A stretch of 61,097 nt of DNA, counting the filler. It is 8 parts of 8 records of this genome, joined end to end, with 100 filler letters (N's around TTAATTAATTAA, not from the genome) between each part and the next. Parts side by side here need not be neighbours in the genome. Positions count along the whole stretch, not along the records: positions 1 to 8,163 come from SRR31156797_20221; 7 more parts are not named here. One strand, 5' to 3'. Below the pieces are notes generated by a model. It was not told where the DNA came from, made no database searches, and saw only the letters and a program-made list of their open reading frames with translations. The translations under genes were made by a program, and so were the position numbers. The number at the start of each line of letters is the position of its first letter. Position 1 is the first letter of the stretch. This document shows, piece after piece, positions 1 through 55,785 of this stretch.

Positions 1-354
1 TCCCTCAGGGTAATTTTTATACACATAAGTTTTCATTCGCTTGTGCGGATAATTAGAAGATGTACTCCCTTCCTTATCCATTGCATCATTAAAGATCTTC
101 CAAAAATTTTTTCCATAATCCGGAGTGCATATTAAAGAGTCAACCTGATATGAGTAATAGCTATAACATTTAGAACAACTATGCCCAATTTGAAGATACA
201 ACATATCCCCATCTGATTTTTTATATGATAGTGTATCTTTTAAATACACAAATTCATAAACACACTTCAAAAAAGACTCATCCAATTTTTTCTGTGCATT
301 ACAAAATATAGAGGTTAAAATTATGCAGATCGACAGTAATATTTTTTTAAGCAT
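1..354 (-). CDS. GLPGLI-family protein, paralog 2 (3' end runs off the window; absent from the ORF track)
   Basis: Hand translation from ATG 354: MLKKILLSICIILTSIFCNAQKKLDESFLKCVYEFVYLKDTLSYKKSDGDMLYLQIGHSCSKCYSYYSYQVDSL...YPHKRMKTYVYKNYPEG. Has a signal peptide and shares LQIG, YSYY and PHKRxKTYVYKNYP with 726..1565. Confidence 0.85.
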   Translation of the reverse strand, partial: MLKKILLSICIILTSIFCNAQKKLDESFLKCVYEFVYLKDTLSYKKSDGDMLYLQIGHSCSKCYSYYSYQVDSLICTPDYGKNFWKIFNDAMDKEGSTSSNYPHKRMKTYVYKNYPEG

Positions 355-383
355 ACATAGGATAATTTATAAAAAATAATAAA

Positions 384-417
384 GAAGAGATCGCATTATT
401 ATAAATGTATCTCTTCT
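384..417 (-). terminator. Stem-loop between peptide gene and downstream GLPGLI gene
   Basis: AGAAGAGAT...ATCTCTTCT inverted repeat, T-rich on the minus strand after the stem. Confidence 0.5.
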
Positions 418-431
418 ATATATATACAATT

Positions 432-596
432 TTAGCAACCAGCTCTCCTAGCACCTTCTCTGGCACCTTCTTTAGCTGCATCGCTAAGCTCGTTATTCAA
501 AACTATCATTAATAAAGTAGAACAATACTCTTCTTTTGTTGTTACTTTTCCACCCATTAATTGGTCTAATTCCTGATCATTTAATAATTCTAACAT
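432..596 (-). CDS. Double-glycine-leader precursor peptide B (54 aa; absent from ORF track)
   Basis: MLELLNDQELDQLMGG|KVTTKEEYCSTLLMIVLNNELSDAAKEGAREGARRAGC*. Leader has an L-x-x-x-E-L-x-x-x-x-G-G pattern; core has two Cys. Confidence 0.85.
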   Translation of the reverse strand: MLELLNDQELDQLMGGKVTTKEEYCSTLLMIVLNNELSDAAKEGAREGARRAGC

Positions 597-726
597 GATA
601 TAATTTTTTAGAATAAAATATTTCGAGAACTACTTCGACGGATCTCATCGTCATTCAAAATTAAGTGGGCATATGCTTAAAATGCTTCTAGAAATTGCGC
701 TACATTTTATGTATGCTCCCACCTTT
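550..726. repeat. Copy 2 of an ~175-bp direct repeat (LytTR 3' remnant + intergenic region + peptide leader); copy 1 at ~1748-1920
   Basis: TTTATGTATGCTCCCACCTTT, GGGCATAT, CTACTTC and AATAATTCTAACATGATAT are shared with 1748-1920. Confidence 0.85.
654..723 (-). pseudogene. Degenerate remnant of the LytTR gene 3' end
   Basis: Translates as GGSIHKM*RNF*KHFKHMPT*F*, versus intact GGSIHKVSRNSWKYFKDMPAKF* at 1849-1917. Confidence 0.75.
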
Positions 727-1565
727 TAATATTCACGCTCAATTAAATCGTAACGCATAACTTTTTGTGAAGAATTGCTTCCTAAATCAATTCCGGTTTC
801 CATTTCTGTATAGCCTACAGAATTCATCAAGTAAGCCTTTTTTGCTTTTATAAATTCAAGTCGTTTCGTTTTTTCAAACTTTTTACTTGCCATGTAGGTC
901 TTGCTAAATACAATTGGTTCTTCTTTTTTTTCTATGCCTATCATCACAAAATGATATTGCTTGCCAATGTCATGTACCTCCATAATCAGACCCGGCAAGC
1001 CTCCAAATTTCCATGGACCATCGCTTATGGGAATTTCAGATGTAAACCATGCTATCCATTGTCTGCCTCGAAAAGTACACTTGGCCAATTGGCAGGAATT
1101 GTCCAAAATCGTTTTGGTACTATCCAAAACTTCCCAGTTCTGAGTATTTAGTTCTTCTTCATATATGTAGCCTTGCAAGGAAATTCCATCGGTAACAGTC
1201 ATTTTATCTCGTGGATAATTCTTATACACATATGTTTTTGATCTTTTATGAGGAAAACCTATTGGAATACCACCATTGGCCTTTTTTATTGCTTGTTTAA
1301 CCAGCATGCGACGCTTTTCTTTTCCCTTAGGGGTCTTACTCAGAGAATCCGATTGAAAAGTATAATAGCTATAGTTTTTAGAGATATCCTTTCCTATTTG
1401 CAGAATAATTAAATCATTTCTTACAATACTATTTAAAGTATCAAATTTCCATTTTACACTATACTGACAGATCAAATTTGTATTTCCAAACCTAGTATCC
1501 TTCTGGCATCTAACATTCAATCCCAACACTAACAAACAACTCAACAATATCAATTTAATATACAT
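726..1565 (-). CDS. GLPGLI-family exported protein
   Basis: Signal peptide and the motif AWFTSEIPISDGPWKFGGLPGLIMEV. Confidence 0.92.
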   Translation of the reverse strand: MYIKLILLSCLLVLGLNVRCQKDTRFGNTNLICQYSVKWKFDTLNSIVRNDLIILQIGKDISKNYSYYTFQSDSLSKTPKGKEKRRMLVKQAIKKANGGIPIGFPHKRSKTYVYKNYPRDKMTVTDGISLQGYIYEEELNTQNWEVLDSTKTILDNSCQLAKCTFRGRQWIAWFTSEIPISDGPWKFGGLPGLIMEVHDIGKQYHFVMIGIEKKEEPIVFSKTYMASKKFEKTKRLEFIKAKKAYLMNSVGYTEMETGIDLGSNSSQKVMRYDLIEREY

Positions 1566-1619
1566 AAGTCAAACTATTTTCTGAACAGAAGAGAGAAGCA
1601 ACTTGCTCCCCTTGTTTCA

Positions 1620-1793
1620 CTATAAACAATGTTGCTCCAATGCTGCTGCTGCAGATTCTTGCTCGCCACTGCTCCAAGAATCCCAATTGTTATCAATCAA
1701 CTTATACAATGTATTACAATATTCTACTCTTGTTGTAAGATGAGCACCCCCCATTAAATGGTCTAATTCTGCATCATTCAATAATTCTAACAT
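1620..1793 (-). CDS. Double-glycine-leader precursor peptide A (57 aa; absent from ORF track)
   Basis: MLELLNDAELDHLMGG|AHLTTRVEYCNTLYKLIDNNWDSWSSGEQESAAAALEQHCL*. Leader is 14/16 identical to peptide B; two Cys. Confidence 0.85.
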   Translation of the reverse strand: MLELLNDAELDHLMGGAHLTTRVEYCNTLYKLIDNNWDSWSSGEQESAAAALEQHCL

Positions 1794-1848
1794 GATATTA
1801 TTTTTTAATATTAATTTCGAACACTACTTCAACCGATCTCGTCGTCAT

Positions 1849-2157
1849 TTAAAATTTAGCGGGCATATCCTTAAAATATTTCCAGGAATTGCGCGACACT
1901 TTATGTATGCTCCCACCTTTCAAGCTTATTAATCTGCCAGGCTTTTTGCCTATATAAAATTTTGAATTAATTAAGGTAAATTGGTTTATTTTCAAAACAC
2001 CAGGAAAGTCAATATTCTTCTGAATATCATCCAATGAACATGGTAACATTAAATTTTTCCCATCAATATCGAAAACAAAACAAGTATTTGCCTTCCCAAT
2101 TATAAAAACGATAATATTAAAATCAATTTGTTCCAATGTTTTGTAATCATTTTTCAT
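1849..2157 (-). CDS. Stand-alone LytTR-domain protein (divergent)
   Basis: 102 aa with LytTR-like layout (I-x-F-I start; SLDDIQ; KINQFTLIN in place of RxHRSxIVN; LKGGSIHKVSR). Confidence 0.65.
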   Translation of the reverse strand: MKNDYKTLEQIDFNIIVFIIGKANTCFVFDIDGKNLMLPCSLDDIQKNIDFPGVLKINQFTLINSKFYIGKKPGRLISLKGGSIHKVSRNSWKYFKDMPAKF

Positions 2158-2205
2158 TTCTTATAGTTGAGCTCCCTATACAATCTTTATTAATTTATTG
2201 TAGGT

Positions 2206-2478
2206 TTTAGGTTCCGAAATATCCCATTTAGGTTTGCTAATGTTCTGTTTGGGTTCAGAACTGATAATTTGAGGTTAACAACTCATAAGTTTAGCTTCGG
2301 AATCCAAAATTTGAAGTTTCCTACTCATCTGTTTAGGTTAGGGACCGTAAATTTGGGGTTGCATAAGCTAAACGCTTCTATAAAAAACCCTACTGTTTCT
2401 ATTCGGAACCTAAACACTTCTATTGGTTATTTTTTAGTTCCAATTTAGAACCTTAAATCTTCTATAAAATACCAGATT
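2206..2478. repeat. Degenerate tandem array, 13 units at exact 21-bp period
   Basis: TT(T/G)RGGTT-like motif at 2206, 2227, 2248, 2269, 2290, 2311, 2332, 2353; then NYTTCTAT-like motif in the same phase at 2374, 2395, 2416, 2437, 2458. Confidence 0.85.
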
Positions 2479-2498
2479 GTATCAATTCTTATGTAAAC

Positions 2499-2990
2499 TT
2501 ATTCTTGCTCACTTGTTTCTTCTTCACCTTCCTTTTTGGTACGACTAAAGAATTGTTTTAACTCATTTTGTTTAGATTCATAGCCCGGAGCTGATGTTCC
2601 TACTTTATAGTTGGTGTAAGAATAATCATCCAAGGCTGCCTGATAATTGTCGTAGTCATGTAAAATTTTGGCATTGCTAAGACCTGTAAGCAGGTTTTCC
2701 AATCGAGAAATAATTCCCTCTAAAACAATACGACTGTTAAAATCTTTTGTATACTCATCCCAATCTACATCAGGGCTTTTTAATGCCGGCTGATTTATTG
2801 CATAGTCGTTAACTTTATTTACAAGCAATTTATTTTGCTCACTTATACTACCATACTTACGGCGTTCATCACTACTCAGGTTACTCACCGTAGCTGACAA
2901 TTCTGTTTCTAAAGCAGCCAAAGTTGTATTTACACTTTCTATTTGTTCTGCACTTAAATGTGTATTATTCAGATTTTTTAAGGTACTCAT
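2499..2990 (-). CDS. Conserved-type hypothetical alpha-helical protein (Bacteroidota)
   Basis: ORF track 2499..3011; ATG at 2990 (MSTLKN) is the more likely start. Motifs NLSSDERRKYGSISEQNKLLVNKV and LKQFF. Confidence 0.75.
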   Translation of the reverse strand: MSTLKNLNNTHLSAEQIESVNTTLAALETELSATVSNLSSDERRKYGSISEQNKLLVNKVNDYAINQPALKSPDVDWDEYTKDFNSRIVLEGIISRLENLLTGLSNAKILHDYDNYQAALDDYSYTNYKVGTSAPGYESKQNELKQFFSRTKKEGEEETSEQE

Positions 2991-3077
2991 AGATATAAAA
3001 TTAATTCGCAAATGCTTTAAATTTTCACACTCAAATACAAGTATTTAACATGAAATACTAATTGTTTTAAAGAATAC

Positions 3078-3209
3078 CTATATGTAAACTTTAGTTGGTT
3101 TCCCATCAATAATAATAACATAGTATTTCCTATCATCACCTCCTTTTAGCAAGGCTAATTCCTCTAAACTTAGTTTCTCGAATTCTTTATGATTTTCTAT
3201 TCTTTTCAT
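3078..3209 (-). CDS. Double-glycine-leader precursor peptide C (43 aa; absent from ORF track)
   Basis: MKRIENHKEFEKLSLEELALLKGG|DDRKYYVIIIDGKPTKVYI*. Canonical F-x-x-L-S-x-x-E-L-x-x-x-x-G-G leader. Confidence 0.85.
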   Translation of the reverse strand: MKRIENHKEFEKLSLEELALLKGGDDRKYYVIIIDGKPTKVYI

Positions 3210-3656
3210 AATTTTAAATTTTAATACCGTTTAAGTTTTGTTGTTAGTCATTTACACAAAACAAATACTAAATTGAAATACCTATATAATAGCAGTAGTT
3301 TTATACATTAAACATATATCATAAATTCAATAAAAAAGATTAGGTTTTAAATCCTGTATAATTAGAAATCTAACCAAATAAAGGTTGTTTTCTAATCGAC
3401 ACAGTAAAATTGATTAGGCTATAAACAGAACTATGTAGTATTAAATAATACAAGCAACAAGCACACTAAAGACAGGTGAAAAATACTGATGTAATTCTCT
3501 TTTATAATCGCTAGATTAGATTTCTACTACATTTGATTAGCTAACTCAATTGGTTTCGGTTAAATAAATATTAAATTTTATTTGTAAATTATGTAATTTA
3601 TAATAGTTCTATTATAATTCATTTTCTTTTTGAGAAATGATCAATATATTTACTTT

Positions 3657-5027
3657 ATGAAAACTAAATTATTCCAAAGTCTGGTTGTAACTATGATATT
3701 AGTACTTACCTTACTTGTTTTTTCTCAACTAATGTGGTTGAATCAACAAATGGTGCAGGAAAAAAAAACTTTTCAAGTCAAACTGGAAAGAAGTTTGCAA
3801 AGCATGCTTAACTTTCATGCTTTGCAAGGTTATACTACTCCCAATCCCAAAAAACCTAACACAGCCACAATTAATATCGAAGAAACAACAACAAAAGAAA
3901 TAGACAAAGACCCCTCGAATAGATTAGGACAATATGAAATTAGCACTAAAAACTACACTACAAATTTTTCTTTATATAAGGCTCTTGAAGCAGTTTACAC
4001 AGATATCAGTTTAAATAGAAAAAAAATACATTTAAGCGTTGTAGACTCTTTGTTTCGACACAATTTTACAGAATTGAACTTTATAGAAAGTTACAACATG
4101 CGGCTTTCTAAAAATGGAGAAACGATCGATAGCGTATCCTCTAATAAAGATCCTGCATTAAAACCCTCGCAAAATATTACTCACATAATTATTCCACTTG
4201 GAACAAAAAAAGAATATGTTTTCACTGCTAATTTCAGGCTAAAAAGCTTACCCTTCTTGCACTCAATGTTATACTCTATCAGTATTTCTGGTATTGCTGT
4301 TATTCTTGTAGCCCTTTTTATATTGTGGTTACTTATTAAACTGAATCAAAAAATAAATGAATTGCAATGGCGCGAACAGGCTGTTAGTGGCATTGTACAC
4401 GATTTAAAATCGCCTGTATCGTTCACCTATACATTTTTGGACTACCTCGCTAGCAAAGAAGATTCTCCTTCAAGGCAAAAACAACTATATAATGCAAGCT
4501 CAAATATCTCCAAACTAAGCCATAAAATTGAACTAATTTTGACCTTGTTTCGCGGCAATAAGAAGGAAATTGTTATGACCCCCAAAATTTTTCCTCTTTC
4601 AAAAAAATGTGATGAAATATTATCAGAATTAAATGTTATCTATCAAGAGAAACAAGCAAAATGTGATGTAAACATTGACCAAGATCTAAATTTAAGAGTA
4701 GATCCTTTGTATTTTGAGATGGCATTACGAAACCTGATCGATAATGCCTTTAAATATTCTAATACTCCTGCTAAAATAAATATTACTGCTAAAAGTGTTA
4801 ATAAAGAATTATACATTTACATTAAAGATTCAGGAAAAGGCATTCCACAAAATGAACAAAAGAAAGTATTTCTGGAATTTTATCGTGCCAACAATAACAT
4901 AAAAGGACACGGCATCGGCTTATCGTTTAGTAGGCAAATTATAAAAGCCCACAATGGCAAAATTGAATTGAAAAGTAAGATTGGGGAAGGAAGTACTTTT
5001 TGTATCGTCTTACCTCTGGAAAATTGA
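3657..5027 (+). CDS. Membrane sensor histidine kinase
   Basis: Two TM segments; H-box HDLKSP, N-box NLIDNAFKY, G1 DSGKGI, G2 GHGIGL. ATG at 3657 is preferred over TTG at 3630. Confidence 0.95.
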   Translation: MKTKLFQSLVVTMILVLTLLVFSQLMWLNQQMVQEKKTFQVKLERSLQSMLNFHALQGYTTPNPKKPNTATINIEETTTKEIDKDPSNRLGQYEISTKNYTTNFSLYKALEAVYTDISLNRKKIHLSVVDSLFRHNFTELNFIESYNMRLSKNGETIDSVSSNKDPALKPSQNITHIIIPLGTKKEYVFTANFRLKSLPFLHSMLYSISISGIAVILVALFILWLLIKLNQKINELQWREQAVSGIVHDLKSPVSFTYTFLDYLASKEDSPSRQKQLYNASSNISKLSHKIELILTLFRGNKKEIVMTPKIFPLSKKCDEILSELNVIYQEKQAKCDVNIDQDLNLRVDPLYFEMALRNLIDNAFKYSNTPAKINITAKSVNKELYIYIKDSGKGIPQNEQKKVFLEFYRANNNIKGHGIGLSFSRQIIKAHNGKIELKSKIGEGSTFCIVLPLEN

Positions 5028-5057
5028 AACATGAGTTAAAACAGAGACTTTTATAAC

Positions 5058-5741
5058 ATGAAACAGTTGAAAGTAATATTTGTTGATGATGATATTAACT
5101 TAGGTAAATTTGTTAGTAGTGTACTGGAAAGTGATTACAATTACAAGGTGCATTTCCAAAATACAACGTTAGGAATCAATCATATTATTGAAGATTTCAC
5201 CCCTGATATTATTATTTTAGACGTCGAAATTGGAGACACAAATGGAATTGAAACTGCCGAAAGTATTATTGTCAGTCATCCACAAATTCCAATACTTTTT
5301 GTATCATCTCACAGCGAGGAAGAATTTATAACCCGAGGAATTGATGTTGGAGGAAATGCTTACATCTCTAAGCCAATATCTATTCCAATTCTTGTTTCCT
5401 ATATAAAACGTTTTACTTCAAATAAAACAATAGAACAATCACTAATAATATCTGATTATAAATTAGACCTTGAAACCAACAATTTATATTTTGAAAATAG
5501 CTTGCTAAAAAAACTTAGCCCCTTTGAAAAAAATGCTTTAGAAATATTGATACTAAATCCTAATAAAATAGTTAGTAAAGAACAGTTAGCTGAAAAACTG
5601 TGGGGATACTCCTTGGAAAAACAAAATCCGGCTAGTATACACAATACTCTATCTAAATTGAGAGATTTATTTAAAGAAAATAAGTCTATTCAAATTGATA
5701 CGATAAGAGGTGTTGGCTACATTTTCCATTATAAAAAATGA
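5058..5741 (+). CDS. OmpR-family response regulator
   Basis: Receiver domain (VDDD, ILDV, SKP) plus winged-helix C-terminus (TIRGVGY). Confidence 0.95.
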   Translation: MKQLKVIFVDDDINLGKFVSSVLESDYNYKVHFQNTTLGINHIIEDFTPDIIILDVEIGDTNGIETAESIIVSHPQIPILFVSSHSEEEFITRGIDVGGNAYISKPISIPILVSYIKRFTSNKTIEQSLIISDYKLDLETNNLYFENSLLKKLSPFEKNALEILILNPNKIVSKEQLAEKLWGYSLEKQNPASIHNTLSKLRDLFKENKSIQIDTIRGVGYIFHYKK

Positions 5742-5770
5742 GGAAAATAATATATCACTTTCCTCATTTT
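5735..5770. terminator. Bidirectional terminator between convergent genes
   Basis: AAAATGAGGAAA / TTTCCTCATTTT perfect 12-bp stem. Confidence 0.75.
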
Positions 5771-5780
5771 CTTACTTTAT

Positions 5781-6107
5781 CTAAGCTTGTCCTGTCGGTC
5801 CAAAATTCATTGGAATTACCGGACCTTGTGGTCCTTGATTTGGTTCCACATTTTTAATAGGTCCATTCATTGCTTCAAACTTACTGATGTTATCCTGAAG
5901 AGCTAGCATTAATCTTTTAGCGTGCTCTGGTGTAAGTATAATTCGAGATTTAACATCTGCTTTTGGTACTCCCGGCATTACTCTAACAAAATCCACAACA
6001 AATTCTGAAGACGAATGTGTAATAACGGCAAGGTTAGAATAGGTTCCTTGTGCCACTTCTTCTGTCAATTGAATATCTATTTGATTGGATTGCTTTTTAT
6101 CGCTCAT
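5781..6107 (-). CDS. DUF3467 family protein
   Basis: GTYSNLAVITHSSSEFVVDF...RIILTPEHAKRL; usual position downstream of rpoC in Bacteroidota. Confidence 0.88.
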   Translation of the reverse strand: MSDKKQSNQIDIQLTEEVAQGTYSNLAVITHSSSEFVVDFVRVMPGVPKADVKSRIILTPEHAKRLMLALQDNISKFEAMNGPIKNVEPNQGPQGPVIPMNFGPTGQA

Positions 6108-6190
6108 GATAAATTCATTTATAGTTTTAAAAATTGTGTATAGGTAAAATTAGGAAATATATTTTGAAAGAAGCATTAAATATGAACAAT

Positions 6191-6224
6191 AAAAAAGGGT
6201 GTTTCCAAATTGGAAACACCCTTT
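6191..6224 (-). terminator. rpoC intrinsic terminator
   Basis: AAAGGGTGTTTCCA-AAT-TGGAAACACCCTTT with a T-tract on the minus strand. Confidence 0.85.
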
Positions 6225-6242
6225 ACTTATAGAGTTCTTATC

Positions 6243-8163
6243 TTAGAAATCTGATTTGGTTTCAAGAAGTTTTTCATATTCTTCTTTCGCTCCAACAACA
6301 ACATCTTTGTATTCTCTTAAACCTGTACCAGCAGGAATCAAGTGTCCACAAATAACATTCTCTTTCAGACCTTCTAATTTATCAATTTTACCGCTAATAG
6401 CAGCTTCGTTCAGTACTTTCGTAGTTTCCTGGAACGATGCAGCTGAGATGAAACTCTTAGTTTGAAGAGCAGCACGAGTAATACCTTGCAAAATCTGAGT
6501 AGATGTTGCGGCAATAGCCTCACGTCCTTCAACTAATTTCAAGTCTCTACGTCTTAAGATAGAATTCACATCTCTAAGCTTTCTAGCAGTTACGATTTGA
6601 CCAGCTTTCAATTCATCAGAATCACCAGCATCAACAATGACTTTCTTACCGAAAATTTCATCATTTTCCTGCATGAATACCATCTTGTCAATAACTTGTT
6701 TTTCCAAGAATTTAGTATCTCCCGGATCAGCGATAATTACTTTACGCATCATCTGACGTACAATAATCTCGAAGTGCTTATCATTAATTTTCACACCCTG
6801 CATACGATATACATCCTGTACCTCGTTCACGATATATTCCTGAACTTTTGTAGGTCCTTTAATAGATAGAATATCTGCTGGTGTTGTAGCACCTTCTGAT
6901 AACGGAGTACCAGCTCTTACATAGTCATTCTCCTGAACAAGGATTTGCTTAGAAAGAGGTACCAAGTACTTCTTAACATCTCCTGCTTTGGTTGTAACTA
7001 CAACCTCACGGTTACCACGCTTAATTTTACCAAAAGTAATCTCACCATCAACCTCAGATACAACAGCTGGATTAGATGGATTACGAGCCTCGAATAACTC
7101 AGTAACACGAGGAAGACCCCCGGTGATATCACCTGCTTTACCAAGAGCTCTAGGAATCTTAACAACAGATTGACCAGAAACAACCATCTCTCCTTCTGAA
7201 ACAGAAATGTGAGCACCTACTGGTAAGTTATAAGATTTTAGAACCTCACCTGATGAGCTTAAGATCTTAACACTTGGGTTTTTAGTCTTATCCTTAGATT
7301 CTGTAATTACTTTTTCAGCAAAACCAGTCGCTTCATCCGATTCCTCAGTATAAGTAACACCTGCGATTAAGTTTTCGAAGGTAACCTTACCAGAGAATTC
7401 AGTAACGATCATTGCATTATAAGGGTCCCATTCACAAATAAGATCACCTTTCTTAACATCCTGACCATCCTTAATATACAATTTAGATCCGTAAGGAATT
7501 GTATGAGTAGTCAATGTAATGTTTGTATTCTTATCGATAATACGTAATTCAGCCAATCGACCAATAACAACGTCGTGCTTAGCACCTTCTTCAGGAGTAT
7601 GCTCAACCGTTCTTAATTCTTCAAATTCAGCGTAACCATCGTATTTTGATTCAACAGAGTTTTCGGCAGAAACGTTACCCGCAGTACCCCCTACGTGGAA
7701 GGTACGAAGAGTAAGCTGTGTACCCGGCTCACCAATTGACTGAGCTGCAATAACACCAACTGCTTCACCTTTTTGAACTGCTTTACCTGTTGCAAGATTT
7801 CGTCCGTAACATTTAGCACAAACACCTCTTTTTGATTCACAAGTAAGAACTGAACGAATCTCAACTCTTTCGATTGGAGATTTCTCAATTACTTGAGCAA
7901 TTTCCTCGGTAATTTCAACACCCGACTTAACAATTAACTCTCCTGAAATAGGATTGTAAACATCATGAACGGTTGTTCTACCAAGAATTCTCTCGTATAG
8001 CGAAGCTACAATTTCTTCCTGATTCTTAATTGCTGTTGCAGTTAAACCTCTAAGAGTTCCACAATCTTGCTCATTAATAATAACATCCTGAGCAACATCA
8101 ACCAAACGACGAGTTAAGTAACCCGCATCAGCAGTTTTAAGAGCCGTATCCGCAAGACCTTTA
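6243..8163 (-). CDS. rpoC: RNA polymerase beta' subunit, C-terminal part (5' truncated at contig edge)
   Basis: [69 protein letters not shown]. Confidence 0.99.
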
Positions 8164-8263
8164 NNNNNNNNNNNNNNNNNNNNNNNNNNNNNNNNNNNNN
8201 NNNNNNNTTAATTAATTAANNNNNNNNNNNNNNNNNNNNNNNNNNNNNNNNNNNNNNNNNNNN
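8164..8263. other. Artificial contig linker
   Basis: N-run + TTAATTAATTAA + N-run, 100 nt. Confidence 0.98.
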
Positions 8264-14573: not shown

Positions 14574-14673
14574 NNNNNNNNNNNNNNNNNNNNNNNNNNN
14601 NNNNNNNNNNNNNNNNNTTAATTAATTAANNNNNNNNNNNNNNNNNNNNNNNNNNNNNNNNNNNNNNNNNNNN
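14574..14673. other. Artificial contig linker
   Basis: Same 100-nt N/TTAATTAATTAA spacer. Confidence 0.98.
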
Positions 14674-21813: not shown

Positions 21814-21913
21814 NNNNNNNNNNNNNNNNNNNNNNNNNNNNNNNNNNNNNNNNNNNNTTAATTAATTAANNNNNNNNNNNNNNNNNNNNNNNNNNNNNNN
21901 NNNNNNNNNNNNN
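21814..21913. other. Artificial contig linker
   Basis: Same spacer. Confidence 0.98.
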
Positions 21914-33583: not shown

Positions 33584-33683
33584 NNNNNNNNNNNNNNNNN
33601 NNNNNNNNNNNNNNNNNNNNNNNNNNNTTAATTAATTAANNNNNNNNNNNNNNNNNNNNNNNNNNNNNNNNNNNNNNNNNNNN
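33584..33683. other. Artificial contig linker
   Basis: Same spacer. Confidence 0.98.
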
Positions 33684-42311: not shown

Positions 42312-42411
42312 NNNNNNNNNNNNNNNNNNNNNNNNNNNNNNNNNNNNNNNNNNNNTTAATTAATTAANNNNNNNNNNNNNNNNNNNNNNNNNNNNNNNNN
42401 NNNNNNNNNNN
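42312..42411. other. Artificial contig linker
   Basis: Same spacer. Confidence 0.98.
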
Positions 42412-49196: not shown

Positions 49197-49296
49197 NNNN
49201 NNNNNNNNNNNNNNNNNNNNNNNNNNNNNNNNNNNNNNNNTTAATTAATTAANNNNNNNNNNNNNNNNNNNNNNNNNNNNNNNNNNNNNNNNNNNN
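49197..49296. other. Artificial contig linker
   Basis: Same spacer. Confidence 0.98.
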
Positions 49297-55685: not shown

Positions 55686-55785
55686 NNNNNNNNNNNNNNN
55701 NNNNNNNNNNNNNNNNNNNNNNNNNNNNNTTAATTAATTAANNNNNNNNNNNNNNNNNNNNNNNNNNNNNNNNNNNNNNNNNNNN
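55686..55785. other. Artificial contig linker
   Basis: Same spacer. Confidence 0.98.

Follow-up and report, generated by a model that had tools for sequence, protein, structure and literature searches.

Two-cysteine peptides with double-glycine leaders are linked to GLPGLI genes in Bacteroidota and are candidate cargo of a periplasmic carrier

We analyzed a stretch of DNA of 61,097 nucleotides (nt; hereafter the window) that begins with two tandem modules, each consisting of a gene for a small two-cysteine peptide with a double-glycine leader (pep1 and pep2) followed by a gene of the GLPGLI family. Read along the minus strand, the gene order is a 102-amino-acid (aa) open reading frame (ORF), pep2, a complete GLPGLI gene, pep1 and a second, truncated GLPGLI gene (Table 1). 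The gap between peptide and GLPGLI gene is 55 nt for pep2 and 78 nt for pep1. An earlier note on this DNA had picked out the two small ORFs from the sequence alone, and both prove to be real genes of a conserved family, on the minus strand and each 55-78 nt 5′ of a GLPGLI gene. The window itself is composed of eight contigs joined by seven N44-TTAATTAATTAA-N44 spacers, and its segments range from 24% to 62% G+C and may come from different organisms. The contig that carries the locus comprises positions 1-8163 only; its left end (position 1) lies inside a GLPGLI gene and its right end inside rpoC.

Table 1. Positions of the features of the locus and of the joins in the window.
Feature	Position	Strand	Remarks
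GLPGLI gene, partner of pep1	1-354	-	N-terminal 118 codons; cut by the end of the contig and window
Hairpin with U-run, pep1/GLPGLI gap	379-421	-	Predicted; -14.1 kcal/mol, z -2.8; terminator- or attenuator-like
pep1	432-596	-	54-aa precursor: 16-aa double-glycine leader and 38-aa two-Cys core, type 'NELSDAAKEGAREGA'; profile E 5e-22
Conserved upstream block, module 1	597-729	-	85% identical to 1794-1923; putative promoter and 5′ leader
Complete GLPGLI gene, partner of pep2	726-1565	-	279 aa; signal peptide; LolA/RseB-like fold (model)
Terminator-like hairpin, pep2/GLPGLI gap	1592-1612	-	Predicted; z -1.4, weak
pep2	1620-1793	-	57-aa precursor: 16-aa double-glycine leader and 41-aa two-Cys core, type 'NNWDSW'; profile E 3e-24
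Conserved upstream block, module 2	1794-1923	-	Shares its far end with the final codons of the LytTR ORF
Probable stand-alone DNA-binding protein of LytTR type, 102 aa	1849-2157	-	Pfam LytTR E 0.06 (sub-threshold); Atlas 0.94, 30 of 30 LytTR clusters
GAACCTAAAC-like box array, non-coding	2205-2415	.	21/42-nt spacing, period 21
ORF, 163-170 aa	2499-3011	-	No Pfam or NCBIfam family; same position in Marinifilum L001 (E 9e-89)
Third double-glycine peptide, 43 aa, no Cys, core DDRKYYVIIIDGKPTKVYI	3078-3209	-	Operon head, first after the divergent kinase/regulator pair
Divergent two-component system	3630-5741	+	Histidine kinase 3630-5027, OmpR-type response regulator 5058-5741 (Pfam)
Spacers	8164-8263, 14574-14673, 21814-21913, 33584-33683, 42312-42411, 49197-49296, 55686-55785		

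The leaders of pep1 (MLELLNDQELDQLMGG) and pep2 (MLELLNDAELDHLMGG) are identical at 14 of 16 residues (consensus MLELLNDxELDxLMGG), and both cores keep TTxxEYCxTL...NN and a Cys within the last two residues, with 53% identity between the precursors overall; the pattern of near-identical leaders and diverged two-Cys cores described in the earlier note is thus borne out. The leaders have the attributes of double-glycine leaders, namely a length of ∼15-20 aa, a GG end, spaced hydrophobic residues and, in the model, a helix. Across 14 family members the invariant residues are L5, G15 and G16 of the leader, both the first and the last Cys, and a Leu at the third position after the first Cys; His is often found near the core ends but is not invariant. 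In the model of the pep2 precursor, the leader helix is followed by helices at residues 22-39 and 42-56 (predicted local distance difference test (pLDDT) 86-91), which form a two-helix hairpin with Cys26 and Cys56 at its paired ends. The net charge of the core is -4 for pep2, 0 for pep1 (counted by hand) and -1 to -11 for 11 other family cores. The peptides form a rare family of predicted helical hairpins of ∼40 residues, anionic or neutral, with one Cys near each end of the core.

In a collection of 5.8 billion protein clusters, the peptide family amounts to 37 clusters, nearly all of them labeled 'hypothetical'. One public cluster (P0014) is 95% identical to pep2, and a public homologue (P0004) is misnamed TIGR04149, most likely because of its leader. 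When that model (GG_sam_targ_CFB, for precursors of ribosomally synthesized and post-translationally modified peptides modified by radical S-adenosylmethionine enzymes) was tried on the window, it gave 12.3 bits for pep2, against a cut-off of 25 bits, and no match for pep1, and was rejected. GLPGLI arrays with a related two-Cys double-glycine peptide at their head occur in Bacteroides neonati (L003), Proteiniphilum (L004), Petrimonas (L005), an unclassified Bacteroidetes genome (L006), Porphyromonas levii (L007) and Muribaculaceae (L009). A genome-wide search of 306 genomes with a profile of nine peptides (A2) found extra copies in the Proteiniphilum and P. levii genomes and, in an even sample of 301 genomes of the order, a single additional carrier; the family is therefore rare there (1 of 301). 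A scan of metagenomes with pep2 alone found nothing, and a search of species genomes with the 279-aa GLPGLI protein gave 33 loci.

Linkage of the two genes is strict. For all 15 strong members of the peptide family (E < 1e-10) in the window and the fetched loci, a same-strand GLPGLI gene lies 15-183 nt downstream, and each member precedes one to four such genes; all nine genome-wide profile matches at E <= 1e-10 in the 306 genomes are likewise linked to a GLPGLI gene. Two of the loci (L006 and L007) are near-duplicates, so that ∼13 of the 15 strong members are independent, and similarity to GLPGLI led to the loci of 10 of the 15; the remaining five, like the nine genome-wide matches without exception, were found through the peptide alone. 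The linkage spans at least five Bacteroidales families. We conclude that the pairing goes beyond chance and that the peptide family is obligately linked to GLPGLI genes. A single weak profile match (E 5e-6) has no GLPGLI gene. There, in contig 14 of genome G001 (Marinifilum sp.; 158-5099 of locus L037), the gene for a distant two-Cys double-glycine peptide of 47 aa is followed by genes for a CarboxypepD_reg protein of 449 aa, an unknown protein of 234 aa, a thioredoxin-like protein and a peptidase-containing ABC transporter (PCAT).

The modules appear to be inherited as units. The two GLPGLI proteins of the window are 38% identical to each other and are orthologues of the first (81%) and third (87%, the product of the truncated gene) members of a three-gene array in Marinifilum L001, an array that lacks both two-Cys peptides and a LytTR gene. 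In a quick maximum-likelihood tree, for which the careful search is unfinished, GLPGLI proteins that directly follow Trp-rich 'W-type' peptides fall into clades of their own (3 label changes versus 7.7 when shuffled), and modules of one genome group with like modules from other genera. Distances among cores correlate with distances among GLPGLI proteins (Mantel r 0.32, p 0.003, 12 pairs), a correlation that is evidence for inheritance as modules and not for functional co-evolution. Of the co-diversifying cognate pairs proposed in the earlier note, co-inheritance and predicted binding (below) are supported. The ∼130 nt 5′ of each peptide gene together with the leader are 85% identical between the two modules, and the module 1 block starts with a relic (700-729) of the last codons of the 102-aa ORF (KGGSIHKM-stop), which suggests that the block was copied from one module to the other. 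The same mosaic is found in Proteiniphilum L035, where the upstream DNA and leaders of two modules are nearly identical and divergence sets in from the GG onward.

The complete GLPGLI gene encodes an undoubted member of its family, scoring 193 bits against TIGR01200 (cut-off 50; Pfam PF09697, Porph_ging), and the truncated product scores 41 bits (E 1.8e-10) with 118 of ∼276 residues present. The GGLPGLI motif occupies residues 188-194 of the 279-aa protein, in invariant columns, and the partial copy ends before it; the N-terminus is hydrophobic and ends in ...VRCQ, as a signal peptide. The family is large (13,478 clusters at 50% identity at E <= 0.001, 10,698 at E <= 1e-10) and scores above the cut-off in 76 of the 301 sampled genomes, oral and veterinary pathogens included. 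A full-text literature search with the family name and identifiers found no functional study of GLPGLI; related proteins have been recorded in outer-membrane vesicles of P. gingivalis (PMC13744359).

A model built from a 57-sequence alignment (pLDDT 87.1, predicted template-modeling score 0.82) was matched by Foldseek best to the N-domain of PNGase F-II (E 3.5e-9, template-modeling (TM) score 0.47-0.49), followed by P. gingivalis LolA3, RseB, LolA proteins and ependymin-related EPDR1 (E 1.6e-5 to 1e-3). The matches to LolA and RseB have probabilities of 0.98-1.00 but TM scores of only 0.23-0.34, and the Pfam model PNGase_F-II_N falls just below threshold. As modeled, GLPGLI is a Sec-exported, LolA/RseB-like half-barrel with a helical lid. 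It shares with LolA/LolB, RseB (among others, PDB 9tp6, 3m4w and 8v1k) and PNGase F-II N (4r4z) an open beta half-barrel closed by helices, and with LolA and RseB a periplasmic, Sec-dependent location. It differs from these proteins in its low TM scores (0.23-0.49) and in having no sequence similarity to them beyond the sub-threshold PNGase_F-II_N match; moreover, its predicted ligand is a folded peptide on the lid, in contrast to the acyl chains held in the cavity of LolA-type proteins.

Co-folding, one of the checks proposed in the earlier note, came out in favor of the pair of pep2 and its GLPGLI protein. The pep2 core (residues 17-57) and mature GLPGLI (residues 21-279) gave scores of 0.88, 0.87 and 0.88, compared with 0.00, 0.31 and 0.00 for the controls. 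Of the solved complexes, 51 of 78 reach the mark set for this test, as do 2 of 108 mismatched pairs. At least 89% of contacts are common to the runs, with a partner pLDDT of at least 83. These predictions support binding of the mature pep2 core to the helical lid of the adjacent GLPGLI protein, with contacts on helices 72-101 and 246-265, loop 105-110 and strand 127-130. The contact columns vary more than the rest of the alignment (3.11 versus 2.30 bits; Mann-Whitney p 6e-7), and the invariant cluster W144/G167/R168/W173/P184/L190/G192, in the GRQWxAWF...GPWKFxGLPGLI stretch, lies outside the predicted interface. On the model, this distribution fits a protein with one variable, cargo-binding face and one constant face.

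In the 10 peptide arrays with visible downstream sequence, an outer-membrane barrel follows in 8, a C39-like/VKOR protein in 4 (one of them a fragment) and a PCAT in 2. The barrel is a protein of ∼870 aa with CarboxypepD_reg and Plug domains (L003, L004, L005, L006, L034 as fragments, L035, L036 and L038) and also follows the orthologous GLPGLI array of Marinifilum L001. A fusion of ∼535 aa joins a C39-like domain to VKOR and thioredoxin domains (L003, L006, L034 and a fragment in L004), and PCAT exporters adjoin the arrays in L009 and L076, while L006 has part of one. The catalytic Cys and His that true PCATs keep are missing from the C39-like domain of the fusion. NCBIfam offered no name for the barrel, the VKOR fusion or the ORF of up to 170 aa at the locus.

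To see the family without regard to peptides, we used the 30 best GLPGLI matches of the 301-genome sample. By a fixed rule, 10 of these 30 loci have a small exported Cys ORF directly 5′ of GLPGLI, nine of Sec type and one with a double-glycine leader, and reading by eye adds two more (L047 and L058). Over all loci, a set that is partly biased because it includes loci fetched through the peptide, such an ORF precedes 24 of 80 array-head GLPGLI genes versus 4 of 207 other genes (Fisher p 2e-11). Thus, the enrichment of GLPGLI genes for upstream peptides that the earlier note anticipated is not found for the present family (1 of 301 genomes, versus 76 of 301 for GLPGLI) but does hold for small exported Cys proteins, mostly of Sec type. 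In all 12 extended loci a barrel adjoins the GLPGLI genes; all nine extended Sec-type loci consist of a small Cys protein, one to three GLPGLI genes and a barrel and lack both oxidase and PCAT, and the two extended double-glycine loci have a PCAT or VKOR fusion nearby. In Chryseobacterium gossypii (L028, 3719-7449), an unrelated 70-aa double-glycine peptide with seven Cys is followed by two GLPGLI genes and a dead-C39/VKOR fusion, so that the same architecture recurs in another class and with another peptide family. Our preferred interpretation is that the locus represents the double-glycine-leader form of a widespread cassette, so far unpublished, in which a small Cys protein, GLPGLI and a barrel are combined. 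Both modules of the window resemble the Sec-type cassettes in placing a small exported Cys protein 5′ of GLPGLI; they differ in the double-glycine leader, and their relatives add a PCAT and the dead-C39/VKOR/thioredoxin oxidase.

From the gene family, its synteny, the fold and the controlled co-fold, we infer the following route. A C39-peptidase ABC exporter encoded off the locus contig would remove the leader and deliver the core to the periplasm, where its two Cys would be joined, in relatives by the dedicated VKOR-thioredoxin oxidase with a catalytically dead C39-like domain that would bind the leader. The adjacent periplasmic GLPGLI protein would receive the folded core on its variable helical lid and pass it to the outer-membrane barrel, of CarboxypepD_reg/TonB-receptor-like type, with which the array ends, each peptide having its own GLPGLI adaptor and all sharing the barrel. 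The divergent two-component system and the LytTR protein would, with the conserved 5′ block, place the cassettes under common regulation. We give a probability of about 0.5 to the central element of this scheme, that GLPGLI is a periplasmic, cargo-specific carrier working with the barrel; if it is, export of the core across the outer membrane appears more likely than import. A precedent for outward transport is the Oar-type TonB-dependent transporter of Myxococcus xanthus, described in PMC6434023 as required for secretion of PopC.

Several observations weigh against this scheme. TonB-dependent barrels normally import, as PMC6434023 states. Bacteroidetocins A and B were made in E. coli from four genes with neither GLPGLI nor a barrel, according to the production experiments in PMC6671954, and double-glycine peptides therefore do not in general need such a route. 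Nor do GLPGLI genes need a two-Cys peptide, since the nearest relatives, Marinifilum L001 (which has the barrel) and Ancylomarina L002, carry orthologous GLPGLI genes without any. The co-fold test is passed by 7 of 44 blind neighbor pairs as well and does not distinguish cognate from non-cognate or related partners, and the variability of the predicted interface may be mere surface exposure. We found no complementarity of charge between the cores and the lids of GLPGLI and rejected the idea, the correlation being positive if anything. A check of the remainder of the locus contig, 1-8163, for a C39 exporter found none, and this 8.2-kb contig has no exporter, oxidase or barrel, so that their presence in this organism is unproven. 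The earlier note had remarked on the absence of an exporter or modifying enzyme from the window at large; that absence is an artefact of eight joined contigs and is uninformative, because the locus contig is only 1-8163.

One alternative to the carrier is that the peptide captures a ligand or metal outside the cell and re-enters through the TonB-dependent barrel to be received by GLPGLI, much as a hemophore does in the HasA/HasR system. In 12 of 12 extended loci, a small exported protein is encoded together with a periplasmic binder and a TonB-receptor-like barrel, an operon that would suit such a shuttle, as would the conserved Cys, and often His, near the core ends. The normal direction of these barrels, again as stated in PMC6434023, is also the one it requires. 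However, the double-glycine loci have VKOR-thioredoxin oxidases of their own, which speak for a disulfide and not for free metal-binding thiols, the core His is not invariant, and no inner-membrane importer is linked to the loci. We consider this explanation improbable, though not negligible.

Among the three options raised in the earlier note for the pairs (toxin and immunity, signal and receptor, cargo and chaperone), the last fits best and the first worst. If the peptides were bacteriocins, GLPGLI would be a periplasmic immunity protein that sequesters them, and any GLPGLI gene that lacks a peptide would be an orphan immunity gene. In favor of this are the tandem cognate pairs, in which leaders are conserved but cores and partners have diverged, the predicted binding of pep2 to GLPGLI, the module-wise co-inheritance and the existence of arrays of GLPGLI genes without peptides. 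In contrast, the net charge of the cores (0 to -11) differs from that of the bacteroidetocins, which are basic in the description given in PMC6671954; immunity needs neither the invariant motif kept across 13,478 GLPGLI clusters nor the barrel of the 12 extended loci; and the partners in the unbiased sample are mostly small proteins exported by Sec and unlike bacteriocin precursors. We therefore regard a toxin and immunity pair as unlikely.

The probability that the peptides are secreted signals is similarly small. GLPGLI would then be a periplasmic receptor, like RseB or LuxP, that reports to the neighboring kinase, possibly after re-import through the barrel. This would account for the divergent histidine kinase and response regulator in the window, L001, L002 and L034, for the stand-alone LytTR protein and periodic boxes at the locus, and for the resemblance of the GLPGLI fold to RseB; in Riemerella, five GLPGLI genes are direct PhoP targets (PMC9603813). 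However, the two-component system is absent beside most peptide loci (L003, L005, L006, L007 and L035) and thus more likely only regulates, and the examined stretches of the Sec-type cassettes contain no linked sensor. Finally, that the peptide genes are cassettes inserted at a convenient intergenic site, with the co-fold a false positive, might be argued from the peptide-less orthologues in close relatives and from the 7 of 44 blind pairs, but seems very unlikely given the 15 of 15 linkage over at least five families, the unrelated seven-Cys peptide that heads the array in Chryseobacterium L028 and the position of small exported Cys ORFs before 24 of 80 array-head genes versus 4 of 207 others (the partly biased sample).

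Returning to GLPGLI as a carrier, a broader and more speculative version would be a three-part route throughout the Bacteroidota, in which a small disulfide-stapled protein is caught in the periplasm by a private, LolA-like GLPGLI adaptor and handed to an Oar-type TonB-dependent barrel working outward. We think this generalization possible but lean against it. Were it true, the present locus would be a variant fed by a C39 ABC exporter and a dedicated VKOR oxidase, and the route would give a function to more than 10,000 GLPGLI clusters and a way for leader peptides to cross the outer membrane. The link of the peptides to a TonB-receptor-like barrel and a private disulfide oxidase touches on two open problems, possible protein export by TonB-dependent barrels outside Myxococcus and the making and release of disulfide peptides in Bacteroidota, which lack general disulfide-forming machinery according to Coyne et al. 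2019 (PMC6671954). With a specific small ligand, a controlled co-fold and strict synteny, an orphan family gains a partner that can be tested.

The closest described peptides are the bacteroidetocins (proposed class IIf; Coyne et al. 2019, PMC6671954), which, in the passages that define them, are likewise confined to Bacteroidota, have double-glycine leaders of 15-16 aa and mature peptides of ∼40 aa (here 38 and 41 aa) with at least two Cys, and come with a thiol oxidoreductase and a C39 ABC exporter, here present only in relatives (L003, L006, L034 and L009). Their locus consists of four genes, for a transmembrane protein, the peptide, the thiol oxidoreductase and a PCAT (PMC6671954, locus description); no transmembrane protein of that type was noticed in the loci of the relatives. 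In contrast to these basic, four-Cys peptides (as described in PMC6671954), the present ones are two-Cys helical hairpins with an anionic or neutral core; one to four GLPGLI genes come after each member, and in most cases a TonB-receptor-like barrel as well. By comparison with the published description, leader, size and Cys content agree and the basic character does not, and membership in the bacteroidetocin class is not established. The Oar/PopC system, in the account given in PMC6434023, resembles the cassettes in having a barrel with a CarboxypepD_reg N-terminal extension and a plug that is linked to a protein which first accumulates in the periplasm; it differs in that its cargo is a large protease and in that those passages describe no GLPGLI- or LolA-like adaptor. 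For our cassettes, the role of the barrel is inferred from synteny alone.

The surroundings of the modules suggest local regulation. The 102-aa LytTR protein is probably a local regulator, judging from its sequence; its ORF was not found in the genomes of five relatives, and the search of PDB sequences gave no significant match. Upstream of it, GAACCTAAAC-like boxes occur 12 times in the window versus 4.2 expected, with 6 of the 12 in the non-coding array of Table 1, and the surrounding ∼300 nt are ∼80% conserved with Marinifilum L001 (3600-3850); the array is a candidate regulator-binding region. By eye, the module 1 upstream block contains a motif resembling the consensus TAnnTTTG. A sigma-70 promoter scan, a model unsuited to Bacteroidota, gave 19 hits versus 21 in shuffled sequence and was set aside. 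A search of positions 1-4000 against Rfam found no match at E <= 1; the conserved upstream block therefore belongs to no known RNA family. In addition to the predicted hairpins in both peptide/GLPGLI gaps of the window, Proteiniphilum L035 has a perfect 21-bp hairpin between peptide and GLPGLI gene (4197-4244; -35.9 kcal/mol, z -8.5).

The third double-glycine peptide, which lacks Cys, is a candidate inducer peptide or further GLPGLI cargo, and relatives of it occupy the same place in Marinifilum L001, in Proteiniphilum L004 and L034, and in L043 of genome G280. Regulated class II bacteriocin loci of Gram-positive bacteria have three components, an inducer peptide, a kinase and a LytTR regulator. 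The present locus is similar in having several double-glycine peptides beside a kinase/regulator pair and a LytTR-type protein, and in its shared upstream elements; it differs in its diderm host, in its OmpR-type regulator, in a LytTR protein without a receiver domain and in that the partner is a large periplasmic binder, where the Gram-positive loci have a small membrane immunity protein.

Within positions 1-3300, three RNA libraries from a single study of marine sediment yielded contigs that match 567-863, 1123-1303 and 1839-2142 at 99% identity or more, a weak indication that the locus is transcribed, as DNA carry-over could produce the same result; stretches of 1-3300 that no such contig matches are uninformative. 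Two RNA-library contigs (runs X6 and X17) join 1-98 to 1174-1199, reading from 1199 to 1, with six other letters between; such a sequence would combine parts of both GLPGLI paralogues and lack the pep1 module, and it may represent a strain variant or another paralogue.

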